From the NCBI GenBank assembly GCA_964653765.1, contig CAZZGQ010000002.1, forward strand, positions 1-56,667: a DNA stretch of 56,667 bases. Reading direction: 5' to 3'. Positions 11,365-47,514 of the stretch are shown here, in pieces. The DNA comes from an uncultured Elusimicrobia bacterium. GTDB lineage: Bacteria > Elusimicrobiota > Elusimicrobia > UBA1565 > UBA9628. The notes below the pieces were generated by a model, which searched no databases, was not told the origin of the DNA, and saw only the letters and a program-made list of their open reading frames with translations. Every line of letters begins with the position of its first letter. The stretch's first letter is position 1. A program made the translations under genes and the position numbers.

Positions 11365-12096
11365 ATGGCTAAACGGGTCGTCGGTATCATTCAGGCGCGC
11401 ATGGGATCGTCGCGGCTCCCGGGGAAATCGATGGAGCTGCTGGCCGGCAAGCCGTTGGTTTGGCAATTCCTCGAGCGAGTGAAGCGATCCAAGCGGCTCG
11501 ACGAGATCGTGCTGGCCACGACCACCAAGGCGCAGGACGACGTTCTAGAGCAGTTGGCGCGCGGCTGCGAGGTCAGCGTCTTCCGAGGTAGCGAGAACGA
11601 TCTAGTCGACCGCTATTTCCAGGCGGCGAAACGGTTCAAAGCCGACACGGTGGTGCGCTTGTGCGCCGACAATCCGGTCGTCGAGTCCGAAGAAGTCGAC
11701 CGGATCATCGAGTACTTCCCTATCTCCGGCGTGGATTTCGCGGCTAATACTCATAACATCCTCGACAACCAGTATCCCGACGGCCTGGGCGCCGAGATCT
11801 TCAGCTTCGAGAGCTTGGAGGAAATCTGGCGGGAGTCCACCGACCCTCGGCGCAGGGAGCACCCGCACACGAACTTCTACGAGCAGCCCGAGAAGTACAC
11901 GATCGGCACCGTGCCTTGCCCCGCCGGCTTCCGCAGGCCCGAGCTCAAGCTCGACGTCAATCTGCCCGAGGAGCTGGCTTTCCTGCAGACGATCTACGAT
12001 TACTGCTATCCGCGCAACGAGCGCTTCCATATCACGGATATTATTCGGTGGCACGATACAGTCTATAAGAAGGAGCCGCTAAGAGCGTCGAAATAG
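11365..12096 (+). CDS. Acylneuraminate-type cytidylyltransferase, SpsF/PseF-like
   Basis: IIQARMGSSRLPGKS, FRGSENDLVDRY, VRLCADNP, REH, LDV..PE.L. Confidence 0.9.
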   Translation: MAKRVVGIIQARMGSSRLPGKSMELLAGKPLVWQFLERVKRSKRLDEIVLATTTKAQDDVLEQLARGCEVSVFRGSENDLVDRYFQAAKRFKADTVVRLCADNPVVESEEVDRIIEYFPISGVDFAANTHNILDNQYPDGLGAEIFSFESLEEIWRESTDPRRREHPHTNFYEQPEKYTIGTVPCPAGFRRPELKLDVNLPEELAFLQTIYDYCYPRNERFHITDIIRWHDTVYKKEPLRASK

Positions 12097-12101
12097 TCGC
12101 C

Positions 12102-12893
12102 ATGAGCTTTACGTTAGAACGAATCAGGGATTTTTGGACGGACCAGGCGAAGACACATGGGCAATCGTATGCCGCTTCGTGGTCAGATCGCTACGCTATT
12201 GAGTTGGAGATCGAGACGCTGCTCAATTACGTAGCGCCAGGCGACCGTATGCTCGATATCGGATGCGCGAACGGTTTTTCAACGCTCCGAATTGTGAGTC
12301 AACGAGCTGTGTCAGTCGACGCGATAGACTATATTCCGGACATGGTTGAACAAGCCACGCGGCGCGCTGCTGATCTCGACGGACAACTTCAAGGATCGGT
12401 TCGATTTTCCGTCGGCGATGCAACTGCCCTTGAGCAAGAATCGGAATCCTACGACAAGGTCATGGCGATTCGAGTCGTCATAAACCTGCGTTCGTGGGAC
12501 AACCAAAAGAAAGCTCTACAAGAAGCGTCGCGAGTCCTAAAACGAGGCGGATTGCTTCTGCTATCAGAGGCGACTCTTCAGGGCTGGACCAAGCTCAACT
12601 CACTGCGGGCTACGTTTGGCCTTGCGCCTATCCCGATGCCTGCCTTCAATGAGTATCTAGATCAAGACCGAGTCGTCGATGCGCTCCGTGGGTCGATGGA
12701 TCTCGTCATGATCCGGAATTTCTCTAGCACTTACTTTCTGGGGACGCGCGTGCTTAAACCACTTGTATTTCCGATTGTCGGGCTTGCTGCTGAGATACCG
12801 AATCCGCAAACAGCATGGAACCGGTGGTTCTCGCGCTTGCCGGCCTTGGGGACATTCGGCACCCAAAAACTATTCGTTTTTCGAAAGAAGTAA
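12102..12893 (+). CDS. Class I SAM-dependent methyltransferase
   Basis: LDIGCANG, GDAT.L, RVLKRGG. Confidence 0.88.
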   Translation: MSFTLERIRDFWTDQAKTHGQSYAASWSDRYAIELEIETLLNYVAPGDRMLDIGCANGFSTLRIVSQRAVSVDAIDYIPDMVEQATRRAADLDGQLQGSVRFSVGDATALEQESESYDKVMAIRVVINLRSWDNQKKALQEASRVLKRGGLLLLSEATLQGWTKLNSLRATFGLAPIPMPAFNEYLDQDRVVDALRGSMDLVMIRNFSSTYFLGTRVLKPLVFPIVGLAAEIPNPQTAWNRWFSRLPALGTFGTQKLFVFRKK

Positions 12894-12922
12894 GGCCCTT
12901 CAGTCAATCGCCCTCGCGTAAC

Positions 12923-12931
12923 TGTTAAGAT
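12923..12931 (+). promoter_or_regulatory. Extended -10 element, possibly for a leaderless transcript
   Basis: TG-T-TAAGAT ending 6 nt before ATG 12938. Confidence 0.5.
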
Positions 12932-12937
12932 TTAAGG

Positions 12938-14757: not shown

Positions 14758-14761
14758 TTTC

Positions 14762-16558: not shown

Positions 16559-16588
16559 ATCGTTGGCGGAATAGGCGGCCGCAAGTTT

Positions 16589-16597: not shown

Positions 16598-16640
16598 TTA
16601 TATGCCTTCTTTGGCGCAATCTAGAATCGACGAGTCAAGA

Positions 16641-17873: not shown

Positions 17874-18938
17874 GTGAAGCGGCCATTAAGAGTCGGCATT
17901 GCCGGGTATGGCGTCATTGGCCAGCGCCGAAGGCAAGTCATCGACGCGCATCCCGCCCTTAAGCTAGTCGCCATTGGCGATAAGACTTTTAAACGGCGAG
18001 AGCGGTTGGGAAACGGCCCTCGACAGTATCACGACTGCAGGGATCTTGTTGCTGCCGAACAGCTAGACGTTTTGTTCGTTTGTCTCCCAAATTATCTCGC
18101 AGCGCCGATGACCCTGGCCGGCCTGAAACGTGGTTTTCATGTGTTCTGCGAGAAGCCGCCAGGCCGCACGCTTGCTGAGATAGACGCCGTGTATGAATAC
18201 ACCAAGCGCAGGCCAGACCTGAAATTGAAGTATGGCTTCAATCATCGATATCATGACTCGGTCCGCGACGCGTTAGAGATTCTGGCCAAAGGAGAACTCG
18301 GCCGCGTTATTAGTCTGCGAGGCGTCTATGGCAAAAGCAAGATCATCCCTTTTGCCGATGCGTGGCGGGGAAAGCGGAAATATGCCGGAGGAGGCATCCT
18401 TCTTGACCAGGGCATTCATATGGTCGACCTCATCCGTCTGTTCGCGGGGGAATTCGTCGACGTTCACAGTTTCATTTCAAACGATTTCTGGCGGCATGAC
18501 GTGGAGGATAACGCCTATGCGTTGATGCGCACGAGAACGGGCGTGGTGGCCATGGTTCATTCTTCTGCGACGTCTTGGCGCCATCGTTTCCATCTTGACG
18601 TGACGCTGGAGCGCGGCGCCTTGATCCTTTCTGGCATTCTTTCGGGCTCACGTAGTTACGGCGCTGAGACACTTACGGTGGTCTATGCCGGTCAGGATGA
18701 TTCCGGCGACCCTAAAGAGCAAACGACTCGCTACAATCAGGATCATTCTTGGCGCGATGAGATCGATGAATTCGTCGAGGCCATTCTTCAGAATAAACCC
18801 GTTTCAAACGGCTCTTGCGAGGATGCCGTCAAGACGATGGAGCTCATTTACCGTATTTACTGCGCGGATTCCGTTTGGCGGAGCGCCTACAAGTTGCGGG
18901 GCCGGTTGTCGGGCGATCTTGCCGGAGCCGCGCGGTGA
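17874..18938 (+). CDS. Gfo/Idh/MocA family oxidoreductase
   Basis: GIAGYGVIG, HVFCEKP, GFNHRY, GGGILLDQGIH.VD. Confidence 0.92.
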   Translation: MKRPLRVGIAGYGVIGQRRRQVIDAHPALKLVAIGDKTFKRRERLGNGPRQYHDCRDLVAAEQLDVLFVCLPNYLAAPMTLAGLKRGFHVFCEKPPGRTLAEIDAVYEYTKRRPDLKLKYGFNHRYHDSVRDALEILAKGELGRVISLRGVYGKSKIIPFADAWRGKRKYAGGGILLDQGIHMVDLIRLFAGEFVDVHSFISNDFWRHDVEDNAYALMRTRTGVVAMVHSSATSWRHRFHLDVTLERGALILSGILSGSRSYGAETLTVVYAGQDDSGDPKEQTTRYNQDHSWRDEIDEFVEAILQNKPVSNGSCEDAVKTMELIYRIYCADSVWRSAYKLRGRLSGDLAGAAR

Positions 18939-19654
18939 AACGACCGCTCTCCGGTAAACGTGCGCTTGTCACCGGTGGCACTCGTGGCATTGGCGCGGCG
19001 ATCGTGCGGCGGCTGTGTCAAGATGGCGCGAGCGTCACGGTGACTGGCACCCGATTGAACGGCGAAAAACCGAAGGGCTGTGCCTATTTTGCCGTCGATT
19101 TCGCCGATCGCCCGGCGACGGAGGATTTCGCGCGACAAATGGCGCGGCGAGGTTTCGACATATTGATCAACAATGCCGGCATAAACAAGATTTCCCGATT
19201 TCAAGATATCGATCCTAGAGATTATGATCGGATCCAAGAAGTCAACGCGCGCGCTCCCTTTTTGCTTTGCACGGCTCTAGTTCCTGGAATGACGGCCCGT
19301 CGGTGGGGGCGCATCGTCAACCTGACCTCTATTTTTGGCGTCGTGAGCAAGGAATGTCGCGGAGCGTATTCCGCCAGCAAATTCGCTCTCGATGGGATGA
19401 CGGCAAGCCTCGCTGCGGAAGTGGTCCCTTACGGCGTTCTGGCAAACTGCGTCGCTCCTGGGTTTATCGATACCGAACTGACACGCTCAGTCCTTGGGAA
19501 AGCAGGCATGAAGGAAATGGCTCGGGCCATACCCGCCAAGCGCTTGGGCCGCCCGGAGGAGATCGCGGCGCTCGTGGCCTGGCTCTGCGGACCAGAGAAT
19601 ACTTACATTAGCGGCCAGAATCTCGTCATCGACGGTGGTTTTAGTCGTGTCTGA
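18935..19654 (+). CDS. SDR family oxidoreductase (FabG-like)
   Basis: GTGA overlap; TGGTRGIG, NNAG, YSASK, NCVAPGFIDT, SGQNLVIDGG. Confidence 0.92.
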   Translation: MKRPLSGKRALVTGGTRGIGAAIVRRLCQDGASVTVTGTRLNGEKPKGCAYFAVDFADRPATEDFARQMARRGFDILINNAGINKISRFQDIDPRDYDRIQEVNARAPFLLCTALVPGMTARRWGRIVNLTSIFGVVSKECRGAYSASKFALDGMTASLAAEVVPYGVLANCVAPGFIDTELTRSVLGKAGMKEMARAIPAKRLGRPEEIAALVAWLCGPENTYISGQNLVIDGGFSRV

Positions 19655-20735
19655 TCTCATCGTCCAGTCGCATCGGGGTCCGTATGCGGCGCATTTCAGC
19701 GGCGAGTCGCTTGACGATTTGTTCCGCGCGCCGCGGCCTAACGCCCATTATATCGTCGATCAAAATGTGGCGAAGCTCTATGCGAAGGCTCTTCGTCCAG
19801 TTCTTGAAACACGCTCAGTCCTTCGCCTGGAGGCCACGGAAAGAGCCAAGACGCTTGAGTGTTTCACCGGGTATGTTGAGCATCTTGTCGCATCGGGAAT
19901 ACGCCGCGGCGATACTTTGGTCGCTATAGGTGGCGGCGTTATTCAGGACATCGTTTGCTTTCTTGGAGCCACGTTGTTGCGCGGGATCGATTGGGAATTT
20001 TATCCAACCACCTTACTGGCTCAGGCCGACTCTTGCATCGGGTCGAAGAGCTCAATTAACGTCGGTTCTGCGAAGAATGTCCTTGGCACATACACGCCGC
20101 CAAAACGCATCGTCATTAACGTCGGTTTTCTTGACACTCTCTCCGAGTGGGATAGGCGGTCTGGAGTGGGCGAGATGCTCAAGGTCCATGCGATTGAGGG
20201 GCCGGCGGCTTTTAACCGTATCGCAAGCGAATACTCGAGGCTTTTTTTAGATAAGGGTGCCCTGATTCAATACTTGCGTGATTCCCTCGAAATAAAGCGC
20301 CGGATCGTTGAAGTTGATGAATTCGATCGTGGGCCTCGCAACGTCATGAATTACGGCCACACTTTTGGGCATGCCATCGAATCGGCGACTGATTACGCCA
20401 TTCCCCATGGAATTGCCGTGACGATCGGCATGGACATGGCGAATTTCGTCGCTTGGAAGCTTGGGTTGAGCACCGGAGAAATCTATTTCCGTATGCGACC
20501 GACGCTTGCGGCCAACTACAAAGGCTATGAATCAACGAAGGTGCCGTTTGATTCTTTCCTCGCGGCGATCGGGAAAGACAAAAAAAATACGAAAGATCAG
20601 CTCGGGCTGATTCTGCCAGATGGCGAGGGCCGTGTGGCGAAGCGTTTTTGTTCAAACAACGAGGAGTTCCGCGCCAGTTGCGAAGAATACCTCGCTCACC
20701 AGCGTGAGCCCTTGCCGCTGGCAAAGGGTCAATAG
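19647..20735 (+). CDS. AroB-related (3-dehydroquinate synthase-like) sugar-phosphate cyclase (alternative start 19635)
   Basis: E..KT, GGGVIQD, RG....PTTLLAQ.DS.IG.K...N, KN..G, GEMLK, RN.MNYGHTFGHAIE, HG.AV..GM, DKK. Confidence 0.88.
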   Translation: MSDLIVQSHRGPYAAHFSGESLDDLFRAPRPNAHYIVDQNVAKLYAKALRPVLETRSVLRLEATERAKTLECFTGYVEHLVASGIRRGDTLVAIGGGVIQDIVCFLGATLLRGIDWEFYPTTLLAQADSCIGSKSSINVGSAKNVLGTYTPPKRIVINVGFLDTLSEWDRRSGVGEMLKVHAIEGPAAFNRIASEYSRLFLDKGALIQYLRDSLEIKRRIVEVDEFDRGPRNVMNYGHTFGHAIESATDYAIPHGIAVTIGMDMANFVAWKLGLSTGEIYFRMRPTLAANYKGYESTKVPFDSFLAAIGKDKKNTKDQLGLILPDGEGRVAKRFCSNNEEFRASCEEYLAHQREPLPLAKGQ

Positions 20736-20800: not shown

Positions 20801-22615
20801 ATGTTCCTTGCGACCACCGCATTGAGCGAGTTCTGGGATACGCGCTCCAGTATTCTGTTCCTTGGATCCTGGTGCTGCCTGCACAGCCGGATCCGGCAGC
20901 TCAAGACGATAGAGCACGCCGTCTTGCCTTATCCGTTAGACGATAAAGCCGTCTTCGATGAGGCTGTCGAGTTCTGCGACGTCTTTTATGACAGGTCCTT
21001 ATCCATTCTAGCGAGGACGCTGAACGGCCTGCACGGGACCTCTCTCAGCGAACAGTATTGGCGCATCCTTCTTGGCCCGTGGCTTACCCATTACATCCAC
21101 GCTCTCTATGACCGCTACCTTTGCGTCCAGGCCGCGCGAGAGAGCTATGGCGTCCTCGAAACCATCGGGCTGGACGAGTCGTCGTATTTCGTGCCTCGAG
21201 ATGCCGACGATCTGCTCAGGTCCATCCATACGGACTCCTATAACCTGCAGCTTCTCACCGCGACGTGCGAGTTTATGGGTGTCCGAATCAACTCGAGAAA
21301 AGCCCTAGATGTGCGGTCCGAAACCATCGTGCTTTCTCATTGGCGCGCGCGGCTCAAGCTTCGAGCGAGAAGAGTGTTTGCGGGATGCCTCGCGCGCCTG
21401 CTTCCTCAGTCCGTTTTCCTTCGTGACGGCCAAATCTGGTATTTTTCCTCTTACCTTCCGCTTAGCGCTCGGTTCCGCCTCCTGCTGCAGACTCGCGGTA
21501 GGGCGGTGTTCGTTCCGTATCACCGTAATGGCCCGAAGTTCGGCGCGCCGAAGATGGACCGCGATCTGCGCGCAGGGCTGGCTCGCGCATTCGGCGAAGG
21601 CGAATTCGAGCGCCTCTTCGCCTCAACGCTCGCCGCGAATTTCCCATGGCTGTACCTCGAGGGCTATGCTCGTTATCTGGCGCAGTTGAAGCCGATGTTG
21701 AGCCTCTCGCCGCGGGCGCTCGTTGCCTCCACCAATACCGTGCCCTTCCAATTCATCGCGGCTCAGCTCAAAGAGAAGGCCGGGTCCAAGCTCATCAGCG
21801 TCCAACATGGCGGCTCCTTCGGAACGGTCAAGCATAGTCCGACGGAGAAGCACGATCAGATAGTCGCGGATGAATATTGGAGCTGGGGCTGGTCAGACGG
21901 TTTGGGCGGACGCGCCAGACCGGTTCCCGGCTTCTTGCTCGGTTCTAGTCGACGACGGGGTGCCAGACGCCGCATGACGGGTCCTATTCTCTATAGTGGC
22001 AATGATATGCCGCGATACGCCTATCGTCTCTGGAGTAATCCGATCGGACCGCAATGGGAAGAGTTCATCCAATGGCAGCACCGCTGGCTCAGGGCGCTTG
22101 GAGCCGAGGCGCGTTCGGAGCTCTTTATTAGACTCTATCCCCACGACCATTACCTTTGGGAGCAAAAGCAACGGCTGCTAGAGTCATTCCCTGATTTGAG
22201 GCATGATGACGGTATAGTGCCATTCGAAGAAGCACTTGACCGCTGCAAGCTGTTCGTAGCTGACAACAACCACACCACGTTATTGCAGGCTCTGTCGGCG
22301 GACAAGCCGACGGTTTTGTTTTGGGAGCCGCGCTTCAATGGGCTTCGCCCGTCTGCCGAGCCCTACTTCGCCCGATTGCGAGAAACAGGCGTATTGCACT
22401 ATTCTCCCGAAGATGCCGCACGCAAGGTCAATGAGGTCCGCTCTCAACCGATGGACTGGTGGCGGCAGCCCGATGTGAGGCGAGCTGTAGCTTCGTTCAG
22501 GAGGCAGTTTGCCCATACCGAAGCCGATACCACAGCGGCCTGGGGCGACTCCTTTCTTCGGCTGCTCCGCAACTCTGTAAACCCAGCCGATCCGTCCTTG
22601 CTTTCTCGTCGATAG
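20801..22615 (+). CDS. Putative glycan transferase, resembles LIC12162 family (GT-B-like C-terminus)
   Basis: MFLATTAL.E.W...ILFLG.WC N-terminus, W.ILLGPWL, QHGG, WGW, RLYP, N.TT.LQAL....PT. Confidence 0.72.
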   Translation: MFLATTALSEFWDTRSSILFLGSWCCLHSRIRQLKTIEHAVLPYPLDDKAVFDEAVEFCDVFYDRSLSILARTLNGLHGTSLSEQYWRILLGPWLTHYIHALYDRYLCVQAARESYGVLETIGLDESSYFVPRDADDLLRSIHTDSYNLQLLTATCEFMGVRINSRKALDVRSETIVLSHWRARLKLRARRVFAGCLARLLPQSVFLRDGQIWYFSSYLPLSARFRLLLQTRGRAVFVPYHRNGPKFGAPKMDRDLRAGLARAFGEGEFERLFASTLAANFPWLYLEGYARYLAQLKPMLSLSPRALVASTNTVPFQFIAAQLKEKAGSKLISVQHGGSFGTVKHSPTEKHDQIVADEYWSWGWSDGLGGRARPVPGFLLGSSRRRGARRRMTGPILYSGNDMPRYAYRLWSNPIGPQWEEFIQWQHRWLRALGAEARSELFIRLYPHDHYLWEQKQRLLESFPDLRHDDGIVPFEEALDRCKLFVADNNHTTLLQALSADKPTVLFWEPRFNGLRPSAEPYFARLRETGVLHYSPEDAARKVNEVRSQPMDWWRQPDVRRAVASFRRQFAHTEADTTAAWGDSFLRLLRNSVNPADPSLLSRR

Positions 22616-24557: not shown

Positions 24558-25382
24558 ATGCTATCCGTTGACGCGTTGGCGCAAAAGAATATCGAGCATC
24601 ATTCCCGGCTCAGCGCCGAGCACGAGTGGGTCAAGGGATTTGTATCCGCCGAGGCGCTAAGGCGGGCCGTTCCAACTTCCGGGACGAAGACGCTCGAGGA
24701 ATTTGAATCCGGCTATTTTGGTCCCGAGGTGGGCCCCGTACGCCGCTATCTCGAGGCGCAGATGCATCGATATATTAGCCCTGTGGATGAGTTCTTGGAC
24801 ATGGGTTGCGGCGGGGTTTGGTGGAAAGAATCTTATTGGCCGATCCCCAAACGCGTGACAGGCGTCGAGATTAATCCCTTCGCGCTGTTGAGCTTGCGAG
24901 ACACTTATTGGGACCATCGGAGATATCGTCTCATTTATGCTCCCTATGGTTTAACCGAGCTGCCCGATCAGTCGTTTGATCTGGCGCTTTCGTCGAGCGT
25001 GCTCGGATACGTTCTGCCTTCCATCGCGCAGCTTCATATCGCAGAGCTGGCCCGCCTGACGCGTCGAGGGGGATACGCCGTCTTTAGTCGCGTGAAGGCC
25101 GCCAATATTTGGACGCATGGCAGCGGGACCCGCTTGCGAGAAATCTCTCCGGGCGTATTCGATTACGCCTATTCACAACGAGATCTGAGGCGCGAGATCA
25201 TGAGCCACGGATTTGTGATCGAGGAATCGCGCAGCGTTGGCCTGCGGCTTCCGTTGCCGTGGCGAGCTATTCAAACGCTTTATCGTCAAGGGTGGGCGGG
25301 CTTTATGGACGCGGCCGCGAATAGGCTATTTCCGATTTTCCCATTGCACCATCTCATCGTCGCGCGAAAGAGGGGATCATGA
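24558..25382 (+). CDS. Class I SAM-dependent methyltransferase
   Basis: LDMGCGG, GVEIN, LPDQSFDL.LS..VL.Y. Confidence 0.82.
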   Translation: MLSVDALAQKNIEHHSRLSAEHEWVKGFVSAEALRRAVPTSGTKTLEEFESGYFGPEVGPVRRYLEAQMHRYISPVDEFLDMGCGGVWWKESYWPIPKRVTGVEINPFALLSLRDTYWDHRRYRLIYAPYGLTELPDQSFDLALSSSVLGYVLPSIAQLHIAELARLTRRGGYAVFSRVKAANIWTHGSGTRLREISPGVFDYAYSQRDLRREIMSHGFVIEESRSVGLRLPLPWRAIQTLYRQGWAGFMDAAANRLFPIFPLHHLIVARKRGS

Positions 25383-26512: not shown

Positions 26513-26520
26513 GTCTTCGC

Positions 26521-38216: not shown

Positions 38217-39209
38217 ATGAAGGAAGCTGAAGTTCGCCCGCTCGACCTTTACAACCGTTACCTCGACTTAGCAAAACGGGACGCCAAGACCCTGATTGCC
38301 GAGCGGTCTGATTTTGTCGAAGTCGCTTGCTCTGCCTGCGCTGCGCGGCCGCACGTCGAGGCCTTCGAAAAACTGGGTTTTCGCTGGGTGGTCTGCCGGA
38401 CATGCGAGTCGCTCTATATATCGCCTCGTCCGACGCCGGAACAATTGCTCAACTTCTACAAGAACGGAGAGTCGGTGAAGTTTTGGAGCTCCGACTTTTT
38501 TCGGCAGACGGCCGAGGCCCGGCGAGAAAAGATGTTTCAGCCTCGGGCAAGGCTCGTGGCCGAGCTCGTGAATCGAGAGGCGTGGACCGGCGATAAGACG
38601 TTCGTCGATGTCGGCTCGGGCTATGGGATTTTCTTGGAGGAGATCCGCAAGCTTGGTGTTTTTAACGACATCGTTGGAGTCGAGCCCGGTCCGACGATGG
38701 CCCAGATCTGCCGAGAGAGAGGATTCCGAATCGTCCCAAAGATGGCCGAGGATGTCGTCGACGGCGATTGCCGCGCTGACGTCGCCACGGCTTTTGAGGT
38801 GCTCGAGCACGTCTTTGACCCGCTCAGGTTCTTGGCGGGAGTCCGGCGCCTGCTTAAGCCCGGAGGGCTGTTTCTTTATACGACCCTGACGGCCAGCGGA
38901 TTCGACATTCAAGTGTTGTGGGAAAGGTCCAACAGCGCTCACCCGCCTCATCATCTCAATCTGATTTCCGTCAAGGGGATGGAGCTGTTGCTCGAGCGAG
39001 CGGGATTCAGGCTCGTTGAGCTGGCCACTCCTGGCGAGCTTGACCTCGACATCGTGGCCAACATGGTTCGGGAGAATCCCGCGTTGCCGTTGCCTCGATT
39101 TGTCGCGGAAATGCTCAAGTCTTGCGACGACAAAGGGCGCAGGGAGTTCCAGTCCTTTCTGCGTAATAATCGCCTGAGCTCGCATATTCGCGTCGTCGCC
39201 CGCGCATGA
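38217..39209 (+). CDS. SAM-dependent methyltransferase with N-terminal Zn ribbon
   Basis: CSAC...CRTC..LY.SPRP, VDVGSG.G.FL, FEVLEH..DP, L.PGG. Confidence 0.86.
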   Translation: MKEAEVRPLDLYNRYLDLAKRDAKTLIAERSDFVEVACSACAARPHVEAFEKLGFRWVVCRTCESLYISPRPTPEQLLNFYKNGESVKFWSSDFFRQTAEARREKMFQPRARLVAELVNREAWTGDKTFVDVGSGYGIFLEEIRKLGVFNDIVGVEPGPTMAQICRERGFRIVPKMAEDVVDGDCRADVATAFEVLEHVFDPLRFLAGVRRLLKPGGLFLYTTLTASGFDIQVLWERSNSAHPPHHLNLISVKGMELLLERAGFRLVELATPGELDLDIVANMVRENPALPLPRFVAEMLKSCDDKGRREFQSFLRNNRLSSHIRVVARA

Positions 39210-40159
39210 CGCAAGCGAGCTTGACGCGCGTTCAGAAGCTGACCGTCGATGGGCAATCCGCTTTACGGCTAAACAACGGTCTGGTCCAAGTCGACGTCCT
39301 TCCCGAGCTTGGCGGCAAAATCTGGAATCTGATCCATGTCCCGTCGCAGACGCAGTGGATTTGGCACAATCCAAAAACTGCGCTCCAGAAGGTCGCGTCG
39401 GGTGCCAGCTACGATGACCATTGGGCGGGCGGCTGGGAAGAGCTTTTCCCAAACGACGCGGCCGGTATGTTCCAGGGCCGGAACCTTCCCGACCACGGCG
39501 AGTGGTGGAGTCGCCCCTGGAATGCCGAGGCTCTGGAGTCAGCCAGCGGACAATCGGCCGTGCGACTTTCGCTCGAGGGGAGCGTGTTGAGGGCGCGTTG
39601 CGAGAAACGCATCGAGGTTGCCGCCAACGCCGCGGAAGTCACGATCCGCTATCGAATCGAGAACCTGGAAGATAAGCCGATCCATTTTCTTTTCAAGCAG
39701 CATCTGGCCGTCGCAGTTACTCCGGAGCACCGTCTTGAAGTCCCAGGTGGTTTGGTCCGTCCGGTTGACCTAGACTTCAGTACGAGGCTTGGCGCGGAGG
39801 GGCCGTTTCCGTGGCCGCACGGTCTGGATCGTAAGGCTCAGCTGGTGGATCTCAGCGTCTTGCCCAAGCCTCAGGAGCGGCATCGCGAATTTGTCTATAT
39901 CGAACGCCTCACGGAGGGCGCCTGCGGCGTTCGCGACACGGTGACAGGACGCTCGCTGCGGTTAAAATTCTCCCAGAACACGTTTCCTTTTACCTGGCTT
40001 TTCTGCACGTATGGAGGCTGGCGGGACCTTTACACTGCCGTGCTCGAGCCATGCACCAATATGCCAAAGGATCTCAACGAGGCGTTCCGGCTCGGGAACT
40101 GCGCTTCGCTTGAGCCCGGCGAGTCATTAACGACCTCCGTCAGCGCCATTCTTTCATGA
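39206..40159 (+). CDS. Galactose-mutarotase-like (aldose 1-epimerase superfamily) protein
   Basis: P.LGGKI, GGWEELFP, DHGE, H, EP.T. Confidence 0.7.
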   Translation: MTQASLTRVQKLTVDGQSALRLNNGLVQVDVLPELGGKIWNLIHVPSQTQWIWHNPKTALQKVASGASYDDHWAGGWEELFPNDAAGMFQGRNLPDHGEWWSRPWNAEALESASGQSAVRLSLEGSVLRARCEKRIEVAANAAEVTIRYRIENLEDKPIHFLFKQHLAVAVTPEHRLEVPGGLVRPVDLDFSTRLGAEGPFPWPHGLDRKAQLVDLSVLPKPQERHREFVYIERLTEGACGVRDTVTGRSLRLKFSQNTFPFTWLFCTYGGWRDLYTAVLEPCTNMPKDLNEAFRLGNCASLEPGESLTTSVSAILS

Positions 40160-40908
40160 AGATCGTCGCCATCATCCCTGCGCGACTCAGCGCTTCCCGT
40201 TTCCCGCGCAAGCCCTTGGCGTCGATCCTGGGCCGCCCCATGATCGAGCACGTTTATCGGCGCACTCGGCTGTGCCGGTCTTTGGATGATGTCTATATCG
40301 CCACTTGCGATGAGGAGATTCGGCGGGTCGGCGAGAGCCTGGACGCGAAGGTGTCGATGACCTCGCCTCGACATGAACGCGCCAGCGACCGAGTGGCGGA
40401 GGCGGCGCGCTCTATTGAAGCGGACGTGATCGTCATGATTCAGGGCGATGAGCCGATGATCATCCCCGAGATGATCGATGGTGCCGTTGAACCGCTGCGC
40501 CGTGACCCGTCCGTGCTCTGCGCCAATCTTGCCGCGCCGATCAAGTCGGAGCGGGAATTCGCCGATCCAAACACCATCAAGGTGGTCATGGCCCAAAATG
40601 GCGACGCCCTTTATTTTTCCCGCGAGCCTATTCCGACGCGCCAGAAGTTCCCTTTTGGCGATCTTTCAGTCTACAAACAAGTTTGCGTCATTCCTTTCCG
40701 CCGGGAATTCTTGCTGCGCTATGCAGATTTGCCGCCCACGCCGCTTGAGCGAGCGGAATCGATCGATATGCTTCGCGCGCTCGAGCATGGTTATCCCATT
40801 CGGTTGGTCCGAACAGACGTGATGACTCATGCCGTCGATACCCCGGAAGATCAGCGGATCGTCGAGAAGATGATGCGCGCCGATCCGCTTGTTACCCAAT
40901 ATGCGTAA
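40156..40908 (+). CDS. kdsB: 3-deoxy-manno-octulosonate cytidylyltransferase family, paralogue 1
   Basis: IPARLSASRFPRKPL..I.G.PMI.HV, ASDRVAE, QGDEP, KVV, YFSR.PIP, LE..E.IDMLR.LE.G, VDTPED. Confidence 0.9.
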   Translation: MKIVAIIPARLSASRFPRKPLASILGRPMIEHVYRRTRLCRSLDDVYIATCDEEIRRVGESLDAKVSMTSPRHERASDRVAEAARSIEADVIVMIQGDEPMIIPEMIDGAVEPLRRDPSVLCANLAAPIKSEREFADPNTIKVVMAQNGDALYFSREPIPTRQKFPFGDLSVYKQVCVIPFRREFLLRYADLPPTPLERAESIDMLRALEHGYPIRLVRTDVMTHAVDTPEDQRIVEKMMRADPLVTQYA

Positions 40909-41872
40909 TCCAGCTTCTCCGTCAAAATTTCGCGTTTTGGTGTCGGCGCCTTACGCGATGCCGGTGATCGATCGTTACCGCAGCGTCCTTGAGCAAGCCG
41001 GCTGCGAGGTCGTCGTGGCCAAGGTCCGGGAACGTTTAAGCGAGGGCGAGCTTCTTGGCCTTGTGGTCGACGTTGATGGGATCATTTGCGGCGATGATCA
41101 GATCACGCTCCGCGTTCTTGAGGCCGCTCCACGTCTTAAGGTCATTTCAAAGTGGGGCACTGGCATCGACTCGATCGACGTGGAGGCCGCGCGCGCGCGA
41201 GGCGTTGCGGTTCGAAACACGCCTAATGCCTTCAGCGAGCCCGTCGCGGACACGGCGCTGGGGTATATGCTCTTGTTCGCGCGCCGCCTTGACACGATGA
41301 GTCAAGACATCCGAGCTGGCCGTTGGTCAAAGCCCGCGCTGTTCGCGTTGCGGGAAAAGACTCTTGGAATCATTGGCCTCGGCAATTGCGGGAAAGCCGT
41401 GGCGGGGCGGGCCGCGGCCTTTGGTATGCAGATCGTTGCCCATGACGTCGTCTCGCCGTCAAAGGAATTTCTGGCGCGATGCCCGGTTCGCTTGACAACG
41501 CTTGGGGAAGTGCTGGGAGCGGATTTCGTCACGATTCACGCCAATTTAAATCCCACGTCCTACCACCTGATCAACGATGCGGCGCTCGCGAAGATGAAAT
41601 CGACGGCTTACTTGATCAATACAGCGCGAGGACCGATTGTTGAAGAGGCCGCTCTTGTTCGAGCCCTCTCGGCCAAGCGCATCGCCGGAGCTGCCTTGGA
41701 TGTTTTTGAAAAGGAGCCTCTTCCGGAGGATAGCCCGCTTCGCCGATGCGACAATGTCTACTTCGCGCCGCATAACGCCAACAGCAGCCCTGAGGCGGCC
41801 GAGCGAGTCCATGAAAACACCATCGCCCAGCTGCTGAAGGACCTCCAAGCCGATCCGGTGGTAAGGGCCTAA
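40901..41872 (+). CDS. D-2-hydroxyacid dehydrogenase (SerA-like), paralogue 2
   Basis: SKWGTGIDSID, VAD, GLGNCG, INTARGPIV.E, LDVFEKEPLP, PHNA. Confidence 0.9.
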   Translation: MRNPASPSKFRVLVSAPYAMPVIDRYRSVLEQAGCEVVVAKVRERLSEGELLGLVVDVDGIICGDDQITLRVLEAAPRLKVISKWGTGIDSIDVEAARARGVAVRNTPNAFSEPVADTALGYMLLFARRLDTMSQDIRAGRWSKPALFALREKTLGIIGLGNCGKAVAGRAAAFGMQIVAHDVVSPSKEFLARCPVRLTTLGEVLGADFVTIHANLNPTSYHLINDAALAKMKSTAYLINTARGPIVEEAALVRALSAKRIAGAALDVFEKEPLPEDSPLRRCDNVYFAPHNANSSPEAAERVHENTIAQLLKDLQADPVVRA

Positions 41873-41875
41873 GCC

Positions 41876-43822
41876 ATGCCTGAGACATCCGTCATCATCC
41901 GCGCGTTTAACGAGGCCAAACATCTTCCCAGGCTTTTTGACGCGTTGAAGCGTCAAACATACCGCGATTTCGAGACCGTCGTCGTTGATTCCGGCTCCTA
42001 TGACGCGACGCGCGACATCGCTCGTCAGAACGCGGACCGGCTGATCGAGATCCAGCAGCATGATTTCACGTTTGGGCATTCGCTTAACGTCGGCATTGAA
42101 AATAGCGGCGGCCGTTTTCTTGCCATCATCTCTGCGCATGCGGCGCCAACGAATTCCGAGTGGCTGGGAAACCTGATCGAACCCCTTCGCTCCGATCGCA
42201 CGGCTATGGTCTACGGGCGCCAGATCGGCGACCACCAGACTAAGCTTGGGGAGTTCGTCGATTTCTTGCGAACCTTTGGGACTGAAAAGAAGGTTCTAGT
42301 GGCGCCCGATTTCTTCGCCAACAACGCGAATTCGGTGCTGCGCCGGGATTTGTGGCAGCGCCGCCGTTTTGACGAGAATCTGCCAGGCCTCGAGGACATC
42401 GAGTGGGTGAAGTTTTTCATGGAGCAGGGCTATCAAGTTGTTTATGAGCCGAAGTCCTGCGTCTTTCATGTTCACGAGGAAACGTGGTCGCAAGTGCGCC
42501 GTCGCTATTATCGAGAAGGACAAGCCGCGAAGTGGATTGGAATCGCCGGACGGCGCGATCTGCCCAAGCTCTTCTTTCGAGAGATGCGTTCCTTGGTTGG
42601 CGATTTTTTCTGGACCATAAAACATGGGCGGTCGAGCCGGCCGATGGATATCGTTCGTTGGCGTTACGAGAAGCTGAGAGGTTCTAGCTCCGGCATATTG
42701 GACGGCGCGGCGATGCAAAACCCGGCGACCCGAAGGCAACTGTTGTTTGATCGCTCCTACAAGGCTGTCGTCGTGAGAGCTCCAGGCAAGGCCAGCCTCG
42801 AGGATGTTGAGATGCCGGCGCTCAAGCCTGGAGAGGTGCTTGTGAAGGTCGCCTACCAGGGAATTTGCGCTACGGACCGCGAAGTTTTCGAGGGAACCTT
42901 AGGGTACTATAAAGACGGTCTGGCCAAATATCCGATCGTGCCTGGGCATGAGTTTTCGGGCACCGTCGCGGCTTGTGGCGCCCGCATCGAGGATCTTCCC
43001 CATGGCAGCCCGGTCGTAGTTGAGTGCATTCAGGGATGCGGCAATTGCCCGCAATGCCGACAAGGGCGGAGTATCGGATGCGTTCAGAGACGCGAGGTGG
43101 GCGTCATCGGGAAAGACGGCGGTTACGCGGAGTTCGTGATAACGCCAAGAAAGTTCGTTCATGTTCTTCCGGCAGGGATGGATCTGCGCAAGGCCTGTCT
43201 GTGCGAGCCCACCGCTGTCGTCTTGAAGGGGCTGCGCCGATTGGCTGGAGCGCGGCTAGGAGCTCGTTTGGGCGAGTGCGCTGTCATCGGCGCTGGAACC
43301 ATTGGGCATTTGGCCGCCAGGATCTTGGAACTGCGTGGAAACCGAGTCACCATCTTCGACCGGGATCCTCGGCGCCTTGAGCCGTTTAACGGCAGCTCCA
43401 TTGGAACAAGCCGGGACGTGGATGATTTGACCCGATTCCAAACGGTCATAGAAGCGACCGGCGATCAAGAGGCCTTGGAGGACGTGCTGCGCAAATCCGC
43501 CGCCGGCACCACGATTCTATTGCTGGGGCTGCCCTATGCGCGCCGGGAATTCAGCTTTGAAAATATCGTCGGCTACGATCTGGCGGTCGTGGGCTCCGTC
43601 GGGAGCGGGTCCGAGGACTTCCGAGAGGCGCTGAAGGTCCTTCCTGAGTTAGACGTGCCCGCTTTTTACGGCGCGGTCTTTCCATTGGCGGACTATGAGC
43701 TCGCATGGCAGGCGGCCCGCGAGAGAAAATCGATCAAGGTGATGCTCGAGGTGAGTCGGCCTGAAGCCGCGCAGGCCGACTCACGCGAAGTGGCGACGGC
43801 TTCTGCTAATGGCCCGAAGTGA
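41876..43822 (+). CDS. Fusion: GT2 glycosyltransferase + Zn-dependent medium-chain dehydrogenase (MDR)
   Basis: N-half SVIIRAFNE, VVDSGS.D, ISAH, EDIEW; C-half from about aa 295 GICATD, GHE, CxxCxxC...C, GAGTIG; one uninterrupted frame. Confidence 0.85.
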   Translation: MPETSVIIRAFNEAKHLPRLFDALKRQTYRDFETVVVDSGSYDATRDIARQNADRLIEIQQHDFTFGHSLNVGIENSGGRFLAIISAHAAPTNSEWLGNLIEPLRSDRTAMVYGRQIGDHQTKLGEFVDFLRTFGTEKKVLVAPDFFANNANSVLRRDLWQRRRFDENLPGLEDIEWVKFFMEQGYQVVYEPKSCVFHVHEETWSQVRRRYYREGQAAKWIGIAGRRDLPKLFFREMRSLVGDFFWTIKHGRSSRPMDIVRWRYEKLRGSSSGILDGAAMQNPATRRQLLFDRSYKAVVVRAPGKASLEDVEMPALKPGEVLVKVAYQGICATDREVFEGTLGYYKDGLAKYPIVPGHEFSGTVAACGARIEDLPHGSPVVVECIQGCGNCPQCRQGRSIGCVQRREVGVIGKDGGYAEFVITPRKFVHVLPAGMDLRKACLCEPTAVVLKGLRRLAGARLGARLGECAVIGAGTIGHLAARILELRGNRVTIFDRDPRRLEPFNGSSIGTSRDVDDLTRFQTVIEATGDQEALEDVLRKSAAGTTILLLGLPYARREFSFENIVGYDLAVVGSVGSGSEDFREALKVLPELDVPAFYGAVFPLADYELAWQAARERKSIKVMLEVSRPEAAQADSREVATASANGPK

Positions 43823-45641
43823 CGACTCGCCGATTATCGTTGCTTTGCCCAGAGAGGCCGCCCGCCTAGCCAAGGGAATTGGCCGAGACCGAGAGTGGTG
43901 TTATCTCGGCTCCTCCATTCGTCGGCGAGAGCGCGTTTCTGCCGTTCTCAATAGCGAGCGCAGGGTCTCCGTTGCTCGAGAAATTGATCTGATCGCGGGC
44001 AGATGCAAACAACCGTTCCTGGACTGGCTTGAGAGCGTTGGACGTCTCCAACGCGATCGCCTGGGTTGGTGGACCTCGACGTTAGCCTCACGCAGCTCGC
44101 TGCAGACCGATCTTTTTCTTCAATTCTGTTACGCTGAGCTCATTCGGAGTTGGATTGCAGAGCGCCGTGGGCCGGTGGTTGTTGTTGTCGAGGATCCCTG
44201 GCTGATTTTATTCCTCAAGCGGCGCTTTCCAGACGAATCCGGGCTGGTCTTCTTTGGCGGATTGCCGATGGGCCTTTGCACTAATACGCTCTACTGGCTG
44301 GCGCGAGCGCCTTTGTCCGTCGCCCATACCCTGGCTTATGCCCTCGCCGCTTTCATGCTGGGTGGCCTTATTCGGCGTCGTGAGCCTCGGGAGGGTGGCG
44401 CGTCCGTCTTGATTCATACTTGGATCGATGGCCGATCCGTGTCCCAAAGAGGCGTCTTTCAGGACCCTTACACGGGAAGGCTGGAGTCATTTTTCACGTC
44501 ACGCGGGCAAACGGTGTTGCGTTTGACGCATTGGCACATCCCGCCCACTTTAATCCCGCGCCTGAAATCATTCTGGCAAGACTTCCTCCTGGCGCCTCAC
44601 TATTTGCGTCTAAGCGATATCCTTCACGCCGTGACGTCTCGTTTTACCCTCTCTAATCTGGATTCCATCCCGCGGATGCTTGGCTGGGATATGCGCCCTC
44701 TGCTACGTCGAGAAATGCTTCATGAGTGGGGCCATCCGGCCTATTCGCGATACCGGCTCACTTATCTATGCCTGCGCAGAATGGCCAGCCAATGGGCCAG
44801 TCAGGTCAAGTGCATCGTTTATCCCTTTGAAAACCTGCCTTGGGAAAAAATGCTTTGCCTGGCCTGGCGAGAAGCGTCGCCAACGGTTCGCCTTGTTGGT
44901 TATCAGCATTCGAGCGTGCCGCCGCTGCTGCTGAACTATTTTCTCGGTCAGCGTGAAAGCGAAATCATGCCATTGCCGGACCAGGTGATCGCAAACAGCA
45001 GTTATAATGAGGCACTTCTCAGGAGCGGCGGTTATCCGTCGGTGCTTAACGGGGGGGCCCTGCGCTACGAGCACTTGTTTTTGGACCTTTCGGCGGCCGA
45101 AGGGAGGAAGATTTCATCCGACGCGGATCGGTTCGTGCTTGTGGTTTTCCCGACGTGCGTGCCTTATGCCGAAGCCCTGTTTTTTGACGTCATGGAGACG
45201 TTTAAAGATCCGCTTCATGTCCCGGGGGCTCAGCGGCCCGTGCCGATCGTATTGAAATTTCATCCAGTGCTCCCGTTCAAAATAGTCGCACCCGCAAACG
45301 CGCGGCTGCCGCGCTGGGTTTCCGTCTCGGAGCAATCTCTCGACCAATTGCTTCCCAAGGCGGGAGTTCTACTTTATGTTCCGCACACGACGAGCTGGTG
45401 GGAGGCTTTTATCGCTGGCGTTCCGGTATTAAAATATCAGACCGATATGCTTGACGTGGATTCGTCTTCCGCCTTGGACGGAGACGCCCCTCGGATTTGC
45501 AGGCGAGAAACGATTCGCGATGAGATCGCAAGCGCGCTTTCGCGCGGGAAGACGGGAAAGTGCCCGGAGCATCAGCTGGAGAAGTTTTTTGGACGAGTTA
45601 ACGAAAACCTTTGGCTTCAAATGACGGGGGAACTTCGATGA
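43809..45641 (+). CDS. Putative glycan transferase, GT-B-like C-terminus (resembles LIC13510-type surface carbohydrate proteins)
   Basis: D.Y.G.L, YPFEN.PWEK....AWR, GYQHS, G..RY, LKFHP, T....EA..AGVP. Confidence 0.58.
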   Translation: MARSDDSPIIVALPREAARLAKGIGRDREWCYLGSSIRRRERVSAVLNSERRVSVAREIDLIAGRCKQPFLDWLESVGRLQRDRLGWWTSTLASRSSLQTDLFLQFCYAELIRSWIAERRGPVVVVVEDPWLILFLKRRFPDESGLVFFGGLPMGLCTNTLYWLARAPLSVAHTLAYALAAFMLGGLIRRREPREGGASVLIHTWIDGRSVSQRGVFQDPYTGRLESFFTSRGQTVLRLTHWHIPPTLIPRLKSFWQDFLLAPHYLRLSDILHAVTSRFTLSNLDSIPRMLGWDMRPLLRREMLHEWGHPAYSRYRLTYLCLRRMASQWASQVKCIVYPFENLPWEKMLCLAWREASPTVRLVGYQHSSVPPLLLNYFLGQRESEIMPLPDQVIANSSYNEALLRSGGYPSVLNGGALRYEHLFLDLSAAEGRKISSDADRFVLVVFPTCVPYAEALFFDVMETFKDPLHVPGAQRPVPIVLKFHPVLPFKIVAPANARLPRWVSVSEQSLDQLLPKAGVLLYVPHTTSWWEAFIAGVPVLKYQTDMLDVDSSSALDGDAPRICRRETIRDEIASALSRGKTGKCPEHQLEKFFGRVNENLWLQMTGELR

Positions 45642-46741
45642 AAAAGATTGTCCATGTCGCGGTGATCGGCTGCGGCCGCATTTCTGGCCATCATTGTCGC
45701 TCCATTGTCGAGGCGCCGGGCGTAAAGCTCGCGGCGGTATGCGATCTGGACGAGAAAAAGGCGCAGGCTTACGCCAAGGAGTTCTCGGTTCCGTGTTTTA
45801 CCAACTATCGCGAGATGTTGCGGAGAATTCCAGAGGTCGACGTGGTCGCTGTCATCACGCCCTCCGGCATGCATTATGAGCACTCATTGGAAATCCTCGA
45901 TACCTATCGTAAACACGTGATCGTTGAAAAACCTACTTTTATGCGCCCGAGCCAGGCGCGGCGTGTTTTTGCGCTTGCCCGCCGCCTTGGGCTTCAAGTA
46001 TTTCCCGTTTTTCAAAATCGCCACAACCTTGCCGTTCAACGGGTGCTTCGCGGTCTTCAGTCGGGCGAATTGGGAAAACCCAGAATCATTTCCGTGCGAG
46101 TGCGTTGGTGCCGCCCCCAACGTTACTATGAAATGGCGCCGTGGCGGGGGACGTTTGCCCAAGATGGTGGAGCGCTGACCAATCAGGGAATCCACCACAT
46201 TGACTTACTGCGGCTTTTCGGGGGAGAAGTTCGCCGGGTCAACTGCCTTATGCGAACGTTGGGTGTGGATATCGAGGTCGAAGACACCGCTCTTGCGACC
46301 GTCCAGTTTAAGAATGACGTGGTCGGCGCAGTCGAGGTCACGACAGCGGCAAGGCCAAGCGACTTCGAGGCCTCATTATCGCTAGTCTGCGAGAATGGGT
46401 TGGCCCAGATTGGAGGAATCGCCGTCAACGAGCTTCAGATCTTCACGCCCGACCCGTCGGCTTGCGTGGCGCATTCCGAGGATTTTAGCGGCTGCATTTA
46501 CGGCAACGGGCATAAGCAGATCTATCGGGAAATCAGCGCCTTCTTCAACGAGGGCGTTCCGTTTTCCGTAGCGGAAAGCGATAGCACGAGCACTCTTCAG
46601 CTGCTCAACGCCTTCTATCGCTCCGATGAGGCGCGCGAATGGGTGGAGGTCGATTCCGAGGGAGAGTCTACTCGTTTGGGGCGCGAGGATGAGTCATTGG
46701 CCAGCTTATACCGCAGCCAGCCCGAAGTGGTTCGAGCATGA
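45638..46741 (+). CDS. Gfo/Idh/MocA oxidoreductase (WlbA/WbpB-like)
   Basis: ATGA overlap; IGCGRIS..H, TPSGMH, EKP, FQNR.N, WRGT...DGG...NQ.IH.ID, VED. Confidence 0.9.
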   Translation: MKKIVHVAVIGCGRISGHHCRSIVEAPGVKLAAVCDLDEKKAQAYAKEFSVPCFTNYREMLRRIPEVDVVAVITPSGMHYEHSLEILDTYRKHVIVEKPTFMRPSQARRVFALARRLGLQVFPVFQNRHNLAVQRVLRGLQSGELGKPRIISVRVRWCRPQRYYEMAPWRGTFAQDGGALTNQGIHHIDLLRLFGGEVRRVNCLMRTLGVDIEVEDTALATVQFKNDVVGAVEVTTAARPSDFEASLSLVCENGLAQIGGIAVNELQIFTPDPSACVAHSEDFSGCIYGNGHKQIYREISAFFNEGVPFSVAESDSTSTLQLLNAFYRSDEAREWVEVDSEGESTRLGREDESLASLYRSQPEVVRA

Positions 46742-47514
46742 CGCGGGAGAAAATCGTCGGAATTGTGCCGGCGCGGATGGCGGCGTCTCGTTTTCCTGGA
46801 AAGCCGCTACATCCTATTCTCGGCCGGCCAATGATTGAACATGTATTTAGACGCGCTGAGCGCTTTAAAGGGTGGGACGGACTGCATCTGGCGACGTGCG
46901 ACGGCGCGATCGCCGATTTTGGTCACTCCAAGGGTTGGTCGGTGATAATGACAAGCGATAAGCACACTCGCTGCTTGGACCGGATTGCCGAGGCTGCCGG
47001 CAAGTGCGGCTTAAAACTCGCGCCAACGGACATTGTCGTTTGCGTTCAAGGCGACGAGCCAATGCTGCATCCAGACATGATCGCGGCAGCGATCCAGCCC
47101 CTAAAAAAGGATCGCCAAGCGCATGGAACCATCTTGGCGATGGAGATCGCGCAGCGCGAGCAGTTTGAGAATCCGGACACAGTCAAGATCGTCTACAACA
47201 AGGAAGGCGAGGTGCTTTACACGTCGCGCGCGCCCGTACCGTATTGCAAAGGCACGTTCTCCGTCGATCATGGGGCGAGGAGAATCTATGGCATTTTCGC
47301 GTTTCGCTGGAACGCGTTAAAGACTTTTACGAGGATGAAAGAAGGTCGCCTTGAACGGCTTGAATCGTGCGACAGCAATCGCCTGCTTGACGGAAAAGTC
47401 AGACAGAGAATCGCGCCGTATCCGTTCCGTCCTTCGTTTTCCGTTGATAGTCCGGCCGATATCCACCTCGTGGAGGAACACATGCGGAAGGATCCGCTAT
47501 GGGGGCGGTATTAG
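46738..47514 (+). CDS. kdsB: 3-deoxy-manno-octulosonate cytidylyltransferase family, paralogue 2
   Basis: VPARMAASRFPGKPL, DRIAEA, QGDEP, Y.SRAP.P, LE..ES.D.NR, SVDSP.D. Confidence 0.85.
   Translation: MTREKIVGIVPARMAASRFPGKPLHPILGRPMIEHVFRRAERFKGWDGLHLATCDGAIADFGHSKGWSVIMTSDKHTRCLDRIAEAAGKCGLKLAPTDIVVCVQGDEPMLHPDMIAAAIQPLKKDRQAHGTILAMEIAQREQFENPDTVKIVYNKEGEVLYTSRAPVPYCKGTFSVDHGARRIYGIFAFRWNALKTFTRMKEGRLERLESCDSNRLLDGKVRQRIAPYPFRPSFSVDSPADIHLVEEHMRKDPLWGRY

Follow-up and report, generated by a model that had tools for sequence, protein, structure and literature searches.

Large putative glycosyltransferases beside CMP-ulosonate synthetase genes in a surface-glycan island of an uncultured Elusimicrobia bacterium

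Which enzymes transfer the acidic sugars that a surface-glycan locus of an uncultured Elusimicrobia bacterium appears equipped to activate as cytidine monophosphate (CMP) derivatives? The DNA analyzed, hereafter called the window, is a stretch of 56,667 nucleotides (GenBank assembly GCA_964653765.1, contig CAZZGQ010000002.1, positions 1 to 56,667) of a genome that is 87.7% complete. It encodes three cytidylyltransferases, 1 (11365..12096), 2 (40156..40908) and 3 (46738..47514), and three soluble proteins, called here orphans B (20801..22615, 604 aa), C (22689..24551, 620 aa) and E (43809..45641, 610 aa). An initial annotation had matched these proteins three to three as activating enzymes and CMP-dependent glycosyltransferases, each for a different acidic sugar, and all six open reading frames (ORFs), which lie on the plus strand, were found to have the positions and lengths it reported. 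To our knowledge, no transferase has been assigned in most gene clusters for legionaminic or pseudaminic acid. Very few enzymes are known that attach nonulosonic acids or sugars resembling 3-deoxy-D-manno-octulosonate (Kdo) to bacterial surface glycans (PMC5420450), and three families that occur in many phyla, nearly always beside a CMP-sugar synthetase, are strong candidates for the missing transfer step. We put the probability that the three orphans are CMP-dependent transferases of acidic sugars at about 0.58, the nature of the donor being suggested by gene context and by one weak motif match.

In the proposed mechanism B, C and E would be soluble GT-B-fold enzymes of the LIC12162/TIGR04331, TIGR04417-related and TIGR04326-related families, respectively, and their most likely site of action would be the cytoplasmic side of the membrane. 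There, 2-ulosonic acids activated with CMP would be transferred by them to undecaprenyl-linked repeat units built by a glycan island having two wzy genes. The donors would be a NeuB-derived nonulosonate plus Kdo-like acids, for which the two KdsB paralogues described below would be the activating enzymes.

The activating enzymes were identified by scanning the 52 window ORFs against Pfam and NCBIfam profiles. All three belong to CTP_transf_3 (PF02348), with scores of 103.7, 165.9 and 134 bits for cytidylyltransferases 1, 2 and 3, all of which exceed the Pfam gathering cut-off of 22.6 bits. Cytidylyltransferase 1 is SpsF/NeuA-like and reached no equivalog or subfamily cut-off among the NCBIfam models. 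Cytidylyltransferase 2 passed NF009905 (298.7 against a cut-off of 255) and TIGR00466 (159.1 against 155.2) and cytidylyltransferase 3 passed NF003952 only (212.3 against 193), which is in keeping with their earlier designation as KdsB-type. The two proteins share 40% identity, and cytidylyltransferase 2 shares 35% with the housekeeping KdsB, which is encoded next to kdsA on another contig (C9) and has a stronger PF02348 score (181 bits) than the window copies. By these comparisons the window KdsB-like proteins are paralogues of the housekeeping enzyme with a putative Kdo-type substrate. As contig C9 carries the housekeeping kdsA, together with kdsB and waaA, it could supply Kdo to the KdsB-like enzymes and would be the trivial source. 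Hence, the initial proposal that at least two donors come from non-NeuB routes demands no exotic route, although the conserved partner enzymes discussed below speak, speculatively, for one.

The synthase count given earlier, a single enzyme, is right for the window, where a short-form NeuB-family protein of 291 aa (7560..8435, plus strand; PF03102, 256.3 bits) is the sole NeuB, and wrong for the genome. A second, classical nonulosonate locus lies on the minus strand of contig C6 (6713-29440). It encodes a second NeuB (12831-13892), an Epimerase_2 protein (11743-12762), a NeuA-like cytidylyltransferase (~27.8-28.5 kb) that is the fourth non-housekeeping activator, and a second LIC12162 protein (6713-8488), the fourth orphan, which is 31% identical to orphan B. 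A 552-aa cytidylyltransferase fusion seen on this contig proved to be a stop-to-stop artifact of high GC content, the real domain being the C-terminal ~235 aa. The genome-wide tally is four non-housekeeping cytidylyltransferases, two NeuB proteins and four orphans.

To what families do the orphans belong? None of the three had a match in the Pfam copy scanned, and none has transmembrane segments. Their description as unassigned proteins does not hold for B, which scored 427.8 bits with TIGR04331, the LIC12162 family (cut-off 225), its residues 3-581 covering model positions 1-581 of 585, and is assigned to PF27859 in precomputed annotation. C and E exceeded no such family cut-off. Orphan E scored 68.7 bits with TIGR04326, under the cut-off of 250 and over residues 322-588 only (the C-terminal half), and all 32 of the E relatives scanned (32/32) were likewise sub-threshold; E, for which a word-indexed search gave 35 relatives, is a distant, sub-threshold relative of TIGR04326. 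Orphan C did not match TIGR04417 ('PFTS motif protein') at E <= 0.1. However, 43 of 63 C relatives matched that model weakly (best E 7e-11), and C is regarded as a distant sister of TIGR04417 that lacks a curated family. Weak Pfam matches among the same C relatives were to Epimerase_2 (3/63), Glyphos_transf (1/63, E=0.23) and PF07388 (1/63, E=0.073). The notion that C represents an ultra-rare family, based on the four relatives given by a word-indexed search, was ruled out by an exhaustive HMMER search, which found 156 representatives at E <= 1e-3.

AlphaFold2 models built with family alignments had pLDDT 93.6 and pTM 0.93 for C and pLDDT 91.1 and pTM 0.91 for E. Foldseek searches of the PDB gave 86 matches for C and 177 for E at E <= 1e-3, and in both cases the top 50 were all GT-B enzymes. 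UDP-GlcNAc 2-epimerases, GT1 enzymes and MurG were found in both lists (E values to ~1e-7, target-normalized TM scores of 0.5-0.6), and in the C list WaaA ranked 10th and TagF 26th (E=2.6e-5). We confidently assign a predicted GT-B fold to these two of the three orphans.

Pairwise BLAST detected no significant similarity among B, C and E. The three motifs noted in the initial annotation are real, and each is conserved in its family alignment as invariant or near-invariant columns: a Q motif (Q335-H336 in B, Q383 in C, Q366-H367 in E), a motif at the end of a strand (R-x-Y in B, K-x-K-D-P in C, K-x-H-P in E) and a T-T...A...G/D-K/V-P helix in all three. In profile-profile comparisons the motifs were collinear, the C-E pair giving 94% probability over 121 columns, the B-E pair 65% and the B-C pair a weak match over 202 columns. 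These links support common ancestry of B, C and E as three distantly related families.

Are the orphans linked to CMP-sugar synthesis in other bacteria? We scanned 80 LIC12162 loci, taken from genomes across many phyla, with hidden Markov models built for CTP_transf_3, for NeuB and, as a control, for an RmlA-type nucleotidyltransferase. CTP_transf_3 was present in 64 of the 80 loci, NeuB in 51 and the control in 17. Among the 40 loci that retain at least 8 kb on both flanks the figures were 38 (at a median distance of 3.3 kb), 36 and 11, and of the 16 loci that lack a cytidylyltransferase, 14 extend less than 8 kb on one or both sides. The C-family loci having both flanks intact all carry NeuB and a cytidylyltransferase (4/4), and two related loci (L001 and L003) are alike. 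Four flank-truncated C-family loci also have a cytidylyltransferase, and two others show only a class-IV aminotransferase at the contig edge, accompanied by a TIM-barrel protein and a short-chain dehydrogenase/reductase (SDR) in one. In the E clade nine of ten contexts have CTP_transf_3 no farther than 8-10 kb away (the window, L004, L025, L051, L102, L103, L104, L148 and L150), the exception being L149. In the loci examined, homologues of the orphans are not commonly found away from cytidylyltransferases, and the three families are very probably dedicated to CMP-ulosonate-containing glycans. Given the GT-B models and the tight CTP_transf_3 linkage in all three families, neither of two outcomes that would have told against the initial annotation, a fold foreign to glycosyltransferases (in C and E) or frequent occurrence without an activating enzyme, was observed.

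The genome offers few other consumers of CMP-sugars. Window ORFs of at least 150 aa gave no match at E <= 0.01 to families GT30, GT38, GT42, GT52, GT80 or GT107 or to Maf/DUF115, in keeping with the earlier failure to recognize a canonical sialyl or Kdo transferase there. In the whole genome we found no KpsC/KpsS (PF05159), no Maf/DUF115 (PF01973) and no BFO_1060-type gene, the searches for GT52, GT80 and GT42 being those of the window. The sole genomic WaaA match (GT30, PF04413) is at C9:21819-22343, outside the window, with kdsA and kdsB. As, within this coverage of an 87.7% complete genome, no other CMP-sugar transferase of the types searched accompanies this housekeeping enzyme, we found no candidate consumers of the CMP-sugars but the orphans.

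A hint of the donor came from orphan E. Searching PDB sequences with each orphan singly gave nothing, and profile searches gave nothing usable for B or C and a marginal match of the E family to KpsC (PDB 8fuw and 6mgc; E=0.023), which covers KpsC chain residues 145-254 only. In this alignment the invariant K483-x-H485-P486 of the E family falls on the KVHP of KpsC and the next helix (...EA..aG.PV) falls on EALLAGKPV. In GT107, GT52 and GT80 enzymes the His-Pro motif is in contact with the phosphate of CMP. Capsule_synth (PF05159) was matched by five of 32 E relatives and DUF6716 by five of 32, whereas orphan E itself had no PF05159 match.

Several considerations weigh against the orphans being CMP-dependent transferases. 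The GT-B fold models cover C and E, not B, and their best Foldseek matches are the generic ones, with no CMP-dependent enzyme specifically first. The KpsC and Capsule_synth matches are marginal, and the His-Pro motif is missing from families B and C. Enzymes that donate a ulosonate and enzymes that glycosylate a ulosonate acceptor would be alike in co-occurrence. The ratio of activators to orphans varies among loci (2:2, 2:3 and 4:2), the pairing of orphan families with activator types is loose, and we found no functional study in the literature for LIC12162, TIGR04331, TIGR04326, TIGR04417, TIGR04396, DUF6716 or PF27859. Sub-threshold matches to NF046086, the model of genetically validated transferases discussed below, were seen in relatives of all three orphans (7/32 for E, 3/63 for C and 2/49 for B). 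We had considered these a link to the validated enzymes and down-weighted them, because 8 of 14 control genomes also gave sub-threshold NF046086 matches, and thus they carry little weight. Of the initial claim, the fold of C and E and the linkage to CTP_transf_3 stand, and the CMP donor is inferred from gene context and the weak KpsC alignment.

The alternative that survives best, which we consider rather improbable, is that the orphans are GT-B enzymes which use UDP-, GDP- or dTDP-sugar donors and act on a ulosonate-containing acceptor or on a neighboring residue of the same repeat unit, the co-occurrence being due to the presence of such sugars in the glycan. Their structural neighbors are mostly UDP- or TDP-dependent GT-B enzymes, the window encodes UDP-sugar-type tailoring enzymes (PglF-like, DegT and epimerases), and some loci have more orphans than activators, such as that of genome G001 with two activators and three orphans (C, B and E). 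However, GT2, GT4 and WecA proteins for nucleoside diphosphate-sugars are already encoded in the window, and the CMP-sugars would be left without a transferase of any type searched, there being no KpsC/S, Maf or BFO_1060-type protein and WaaA being a housekeeping enzyme. The weak alignment of the K-x-H-P motif of the E family with KpsC also argues against this alternative.

Phospho-transfer is a second possibility, and less probable still. The orphans would be TagF/TagB-like phosphotransferases or polymerases that take from a cytidine-nucleotide donor a phospho-linked unit (alditol-, glycerate- or sugar-phosphate), not a glycosyl residue, for transfer. TagF is among the structural matches of C, and a TagB-like domain is present in the genetically validated Tannerella nonulosonate transferases (PMC5420450). 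Many E-family genes come after a gene for a haloacid dehalogenase (HAD)-type phosphatase: a free-standing HAD gene immediately precedes the E homologue in L004, L103 and L104 and lies one gene upstream in L148, and a metagenomic protein of 816 aa (P0024) is an E-family protein fused to a HAD phosphatase domain. A cytidylyltransferase fused to a 2-hydroxyacid dehydrogenase, encoded in L103 as a single CTP_transf_3::2-hydroxyacid dehydrogenase protein of 592 aa (L103:1250-3028), is a further point in its favor. Yet the activators are of the KdsB/NeuA type (CTP_transf_3), makers of CMP-ulosonates rather than of CDP-alcohols, and KdsB subfamily cut-offs are exceeded by two of them, whereas Glyphos_transf was matched by the single C-family member mentioned above.

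That the orphans are instead NeuC/LegG/PseG-like nucleotide-sugar hydrolases or 2-epimerases, which also have GT-B folds and would feed a hexose to the synthase, is very unlikely: UDP-GlcNAc 2-epimerases including NeuC (5xvs) head both Foldseek lists, the NeuB module of the window lacks NeuC, LegG and PseG, four to five genomes in which LIC12162 adjoins NeuB show no Epimerase_2 and a few C relatives match that family weakly, but 2-epimerases are generic structural neighbors of any GT-B protein (and at modest TM scores here), genuine Epimerase_2 genes are found inside LIC12162 loci or at their borders in at least L065, L028 and L012, in the C6 locus of this genome and probably in L070, and the E clade occurs in KdsB-type modules that lack NeuB and for which no such hydrolase is required.

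If the orphans are CMP-dependent transferases, is each tied to one activator? The three-to-three match holds in the window, and four to four genome-wide, although it is no general rule. A core conserved in several phyla consists of NeuB, a cytidylyltransferase, a class-IV aminotransferase and further genes, LIC12162, a KdsB-like cytidylyltransferase, a methyltransferase, a GFO/IDH/MocA oxidoreductase, in some cases an AroB-like protein, a 2-hydroxyacid dehydrogenase and TIGR04326, and thus has two activators and two orphans. When whole 60-kb regions holding this core were considered, two genomes had four activators and two detectable orphans. The activator nearest to LIC12162 was NeuA-like in 35 loci, SpsF-like in 13 and KdsB-like in 16, a result that rules out a fixed pairing of an orphan family with one activator type.

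For the window itself we tentatively propose, with low confidence, that C would use the product of the NeuB/class-IV aminotransferase module ending in cytidylyltransferase 1 (module I), that E would be paired with cytidylyltransferase 2 and that B would be paired with the AroB-type cassette, the second GFO/IDH/MocA oxidoreductase (GFO2) and cytidylyltransferase 3. The first assignment is made because C-family genes accompany module I wherever the flank suffices, and the second because locus L102 has the window gene order: cytidylyltransferase, 2-hydroxyacid dehydrogenase, a GT2/alcohol dehydrogenase (ADH) protein and E. The third is based on L040, in which the genes of the AroB-type module, split into three pieces in the window (17874-20735, 25379-27468 and 45611-47514), are contiguous, LIC12162 is the only orphan and the cytidylyltransferase 3 orthologue is the only activator.

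Module I runs in the order NeuB (7560), class-IV aminotransferase, xylose-isomerase-like TIM-barrel protein, SDR (these three at 8653..11356, plus strand, by Pfam) and cytidylyltransferase 1 (11365), an order that recurs in L001, L003, L039, L051 and L087. In L001 and L003 the module ends with an orthologue of cytidylyltransferase 1 (80-84% identity). The first piece of the AroB-type module (17874..20735, plus strand), directly upstream of orphan B, encodes a GFO/IDH/MocA oxidoreductase (GFO1), an SDR and an AroB-related cyclase/phospholyase (TIGR04425, 462 bits). This trio is kept across phyla with a KdsB-like cytidylyltransferase and a 2-hydroxyacid dehydrogenase (L039, L040, L051 and L084). 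The second piece (25379..27468, plus strand) encodes, by Pfam, a class I/II aminotransferase and 2-hydroxyacid dehydrogenase 1 (26521), the closest matches of which, in L023, L084, L051 and L040, adjoin KdsB-like genes and are orthologues forming part of the AroB-type module there. In the third piece GFO2 (45611..46741, plus strand; Pfam) is translationally coupled to cytidylyltransferase 3, a pair that recurs in L040 and L084.

A block headed by a methyltransferase and a DUF4432 protein (38217..40159, plus strand; Pfam) contains cytidylyltransferase 2, and orthologues of this methyltransferase follow KdsB-like genes in L039, L055 and L034. Between cytidylyltransferase 2 and orphan E lie 2-hydroxyacid dehydrogenase 2 and a fusion of GT2 and zinc-ADH domains (together 40889..43822, plus strand; Pfam). 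The fusion (41876-43822) is kept at the equivalent position in L102 (6399-8339, 646 aa). In L039, L055 and L063 the last member of the KdsB-like/GFO/AroB/2-hydroxyacid-dehydrogenase module is a true TIGR04326 protein (>500 bits), a place that is taken by E in L051.

What sugars might such modules make? The fusion found in L103 suggests that the dehydrogenases adjoining KdsB-like genes (40889 and 26521 in the window) act on the same substrate pathway as the cytidylyltransferases. It is a speculative step further that the GFO, 2-hydroxyacid dehydrogenase and AroB-like partners point to modified or differently made 2-keto acids. The KdsB-like/AroB-like/2-hydroxyacid-dehydrogenase module would point to an acidic sugar of uncharacterized chemistry. 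We searched for support for a link of the AroB-like cassette to bradyrhizose and found none. HpcH/HpaI class-II pyruvate aldolases are encoded in loci lacking NeuB, beside the activator in L103 (4142-4951) and L150 (4885-5664) and beside the E homologue in L149 (7205-7984), and could possibly provide a route to 2-keto-3-deoxy sugar acids that is independent of phosphoenolpyruvate.

A much broader view, which we regard as doubtful, is that the locus handles three CMP-activated acidic sugars, each having its own member of a large unrecognized superfamily of CMP-ulosonate transferases (TIGR04331, TIGR04326, TIGR04417 and sister families), and that two of the sugars are made without a NeuB- or KdsA-type synthase, one of them by the module of KdsB-like, GFO, SDR, AroB-related and 2-hydroxyacid dehydrogenase proteins. 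The module might then, for example, oxidize C1/C2 of an aldose to give a 2-ulosonate, or an AroB-type reaction might remodel a Kdo-8-P-like precursor, and relatives would use the HpcH/HpaI pyruvate aldolase instead.

These genes are embedded in a surface-glycan island of ~7.5-54.4 kb, mostly on the plus strand with three minus-strand genes. From about 12 kb (12000-54000) the island has a GC content of 53-61%, whereas the NeuB module and the left flank have 62-72%. It contains two Wzy proteins, one Wzx and one Wzz, and a further Wzx-like gene lies at 5346-6845 on the minus strand. The lower GC content, the two-Wzy/Wzx/Wzz set and the additional Wzx-like gene suggest horizontal acquisition of a locus that either makes two repeat units or combines two clusters. 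Module I is followed by a GtrB-like GT2, methyltransferases, a 598-aa membrane protein and then Wzz. Downstream of orphan C are a methyltransferase, an aminotransferase, a 2-hydroxyacid dehydrogenase, Wzx and Wzy. The middle of the island has ordinary nucleotide-sugar tailoring genes together with GT2 and GT4 enzymes, and the second Wzy, WecA and PglF lie to the right of cytidylyltransferase 3.

All five ORFs of ~600 residues that lack a Pfam match had at one point been considered paralogues, an idea ruled out because two of them (14762 and 27296) encode polytopic membrane proteins. The first, the 598-aa protein (14762-16558), had no Pfam or NCBIfam match and no homologue among ~100 related loci. 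The second is a Wzx-like flippase (27296-29146), residues 543-606 of which copy residues 9-72 of orphan C (64 residues, 58% identical, E=3e-18). This C-terminal copy resembles a scar left by deletion or recombination of a second C-type gene.

The orphans are best regarded as a testable candidate set and not as a new kind of system. If they are indeed CMP-dependent transferases, O-antigen and capsule loci could be annotated properly and new glyco-engineering tools for installing sialic-acid-like sugars would become available. How do they compare with known systems? Orphan B is a full-length member of the LIC12162 family (TIGR04331/PF27859), a computational grouping of putative transferases. In a clinical Herbaspirillum strain a LIC12162-family gene lies downstream of neu genes, and its product was suggested, no more than that, to transfer N-acetylneuraminic acid (PMC6679464). 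The context of orphan B resembles this arrangement in general and differs from the typical LIC12162 setting in that B follows the AroB-type cassette rather than NeuB. TIGR04326 (LIC13510) and TIGR04417 are like the orphans in size (~600 aa), loci and C-terminal domain, and both are uncharacterized families. KpsC and KpsS (GT107, PF05159) share with orphan E a GT-B-type C-terminal nucleotide-binding domain, and they are beta-Kdo transferases, while E is likewise partnered with a KdsB-like paralogue of CMP-Kdo synthetase. However, E lacks the tandem GT107 module, and its N-terminal two thirds show no relation to them. Of the cases backed by genetics, the nearest is that of the Tannerella forsythia transferases of pseudaminic and legionaminic acid derivatives (Tanf_01245, TFUB4_00887 and BFO_1060; NF046086), the knock-outs of which lose the terminal nonulosonate (PMC5420450). 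At ~445 aa these validated proteins are shorter than the ~600-aa orphans, and they too are soluble; they have two domains, are GT-B/TagB-like and have their genes immediately downstream of a CMP-nonulosonate locus.

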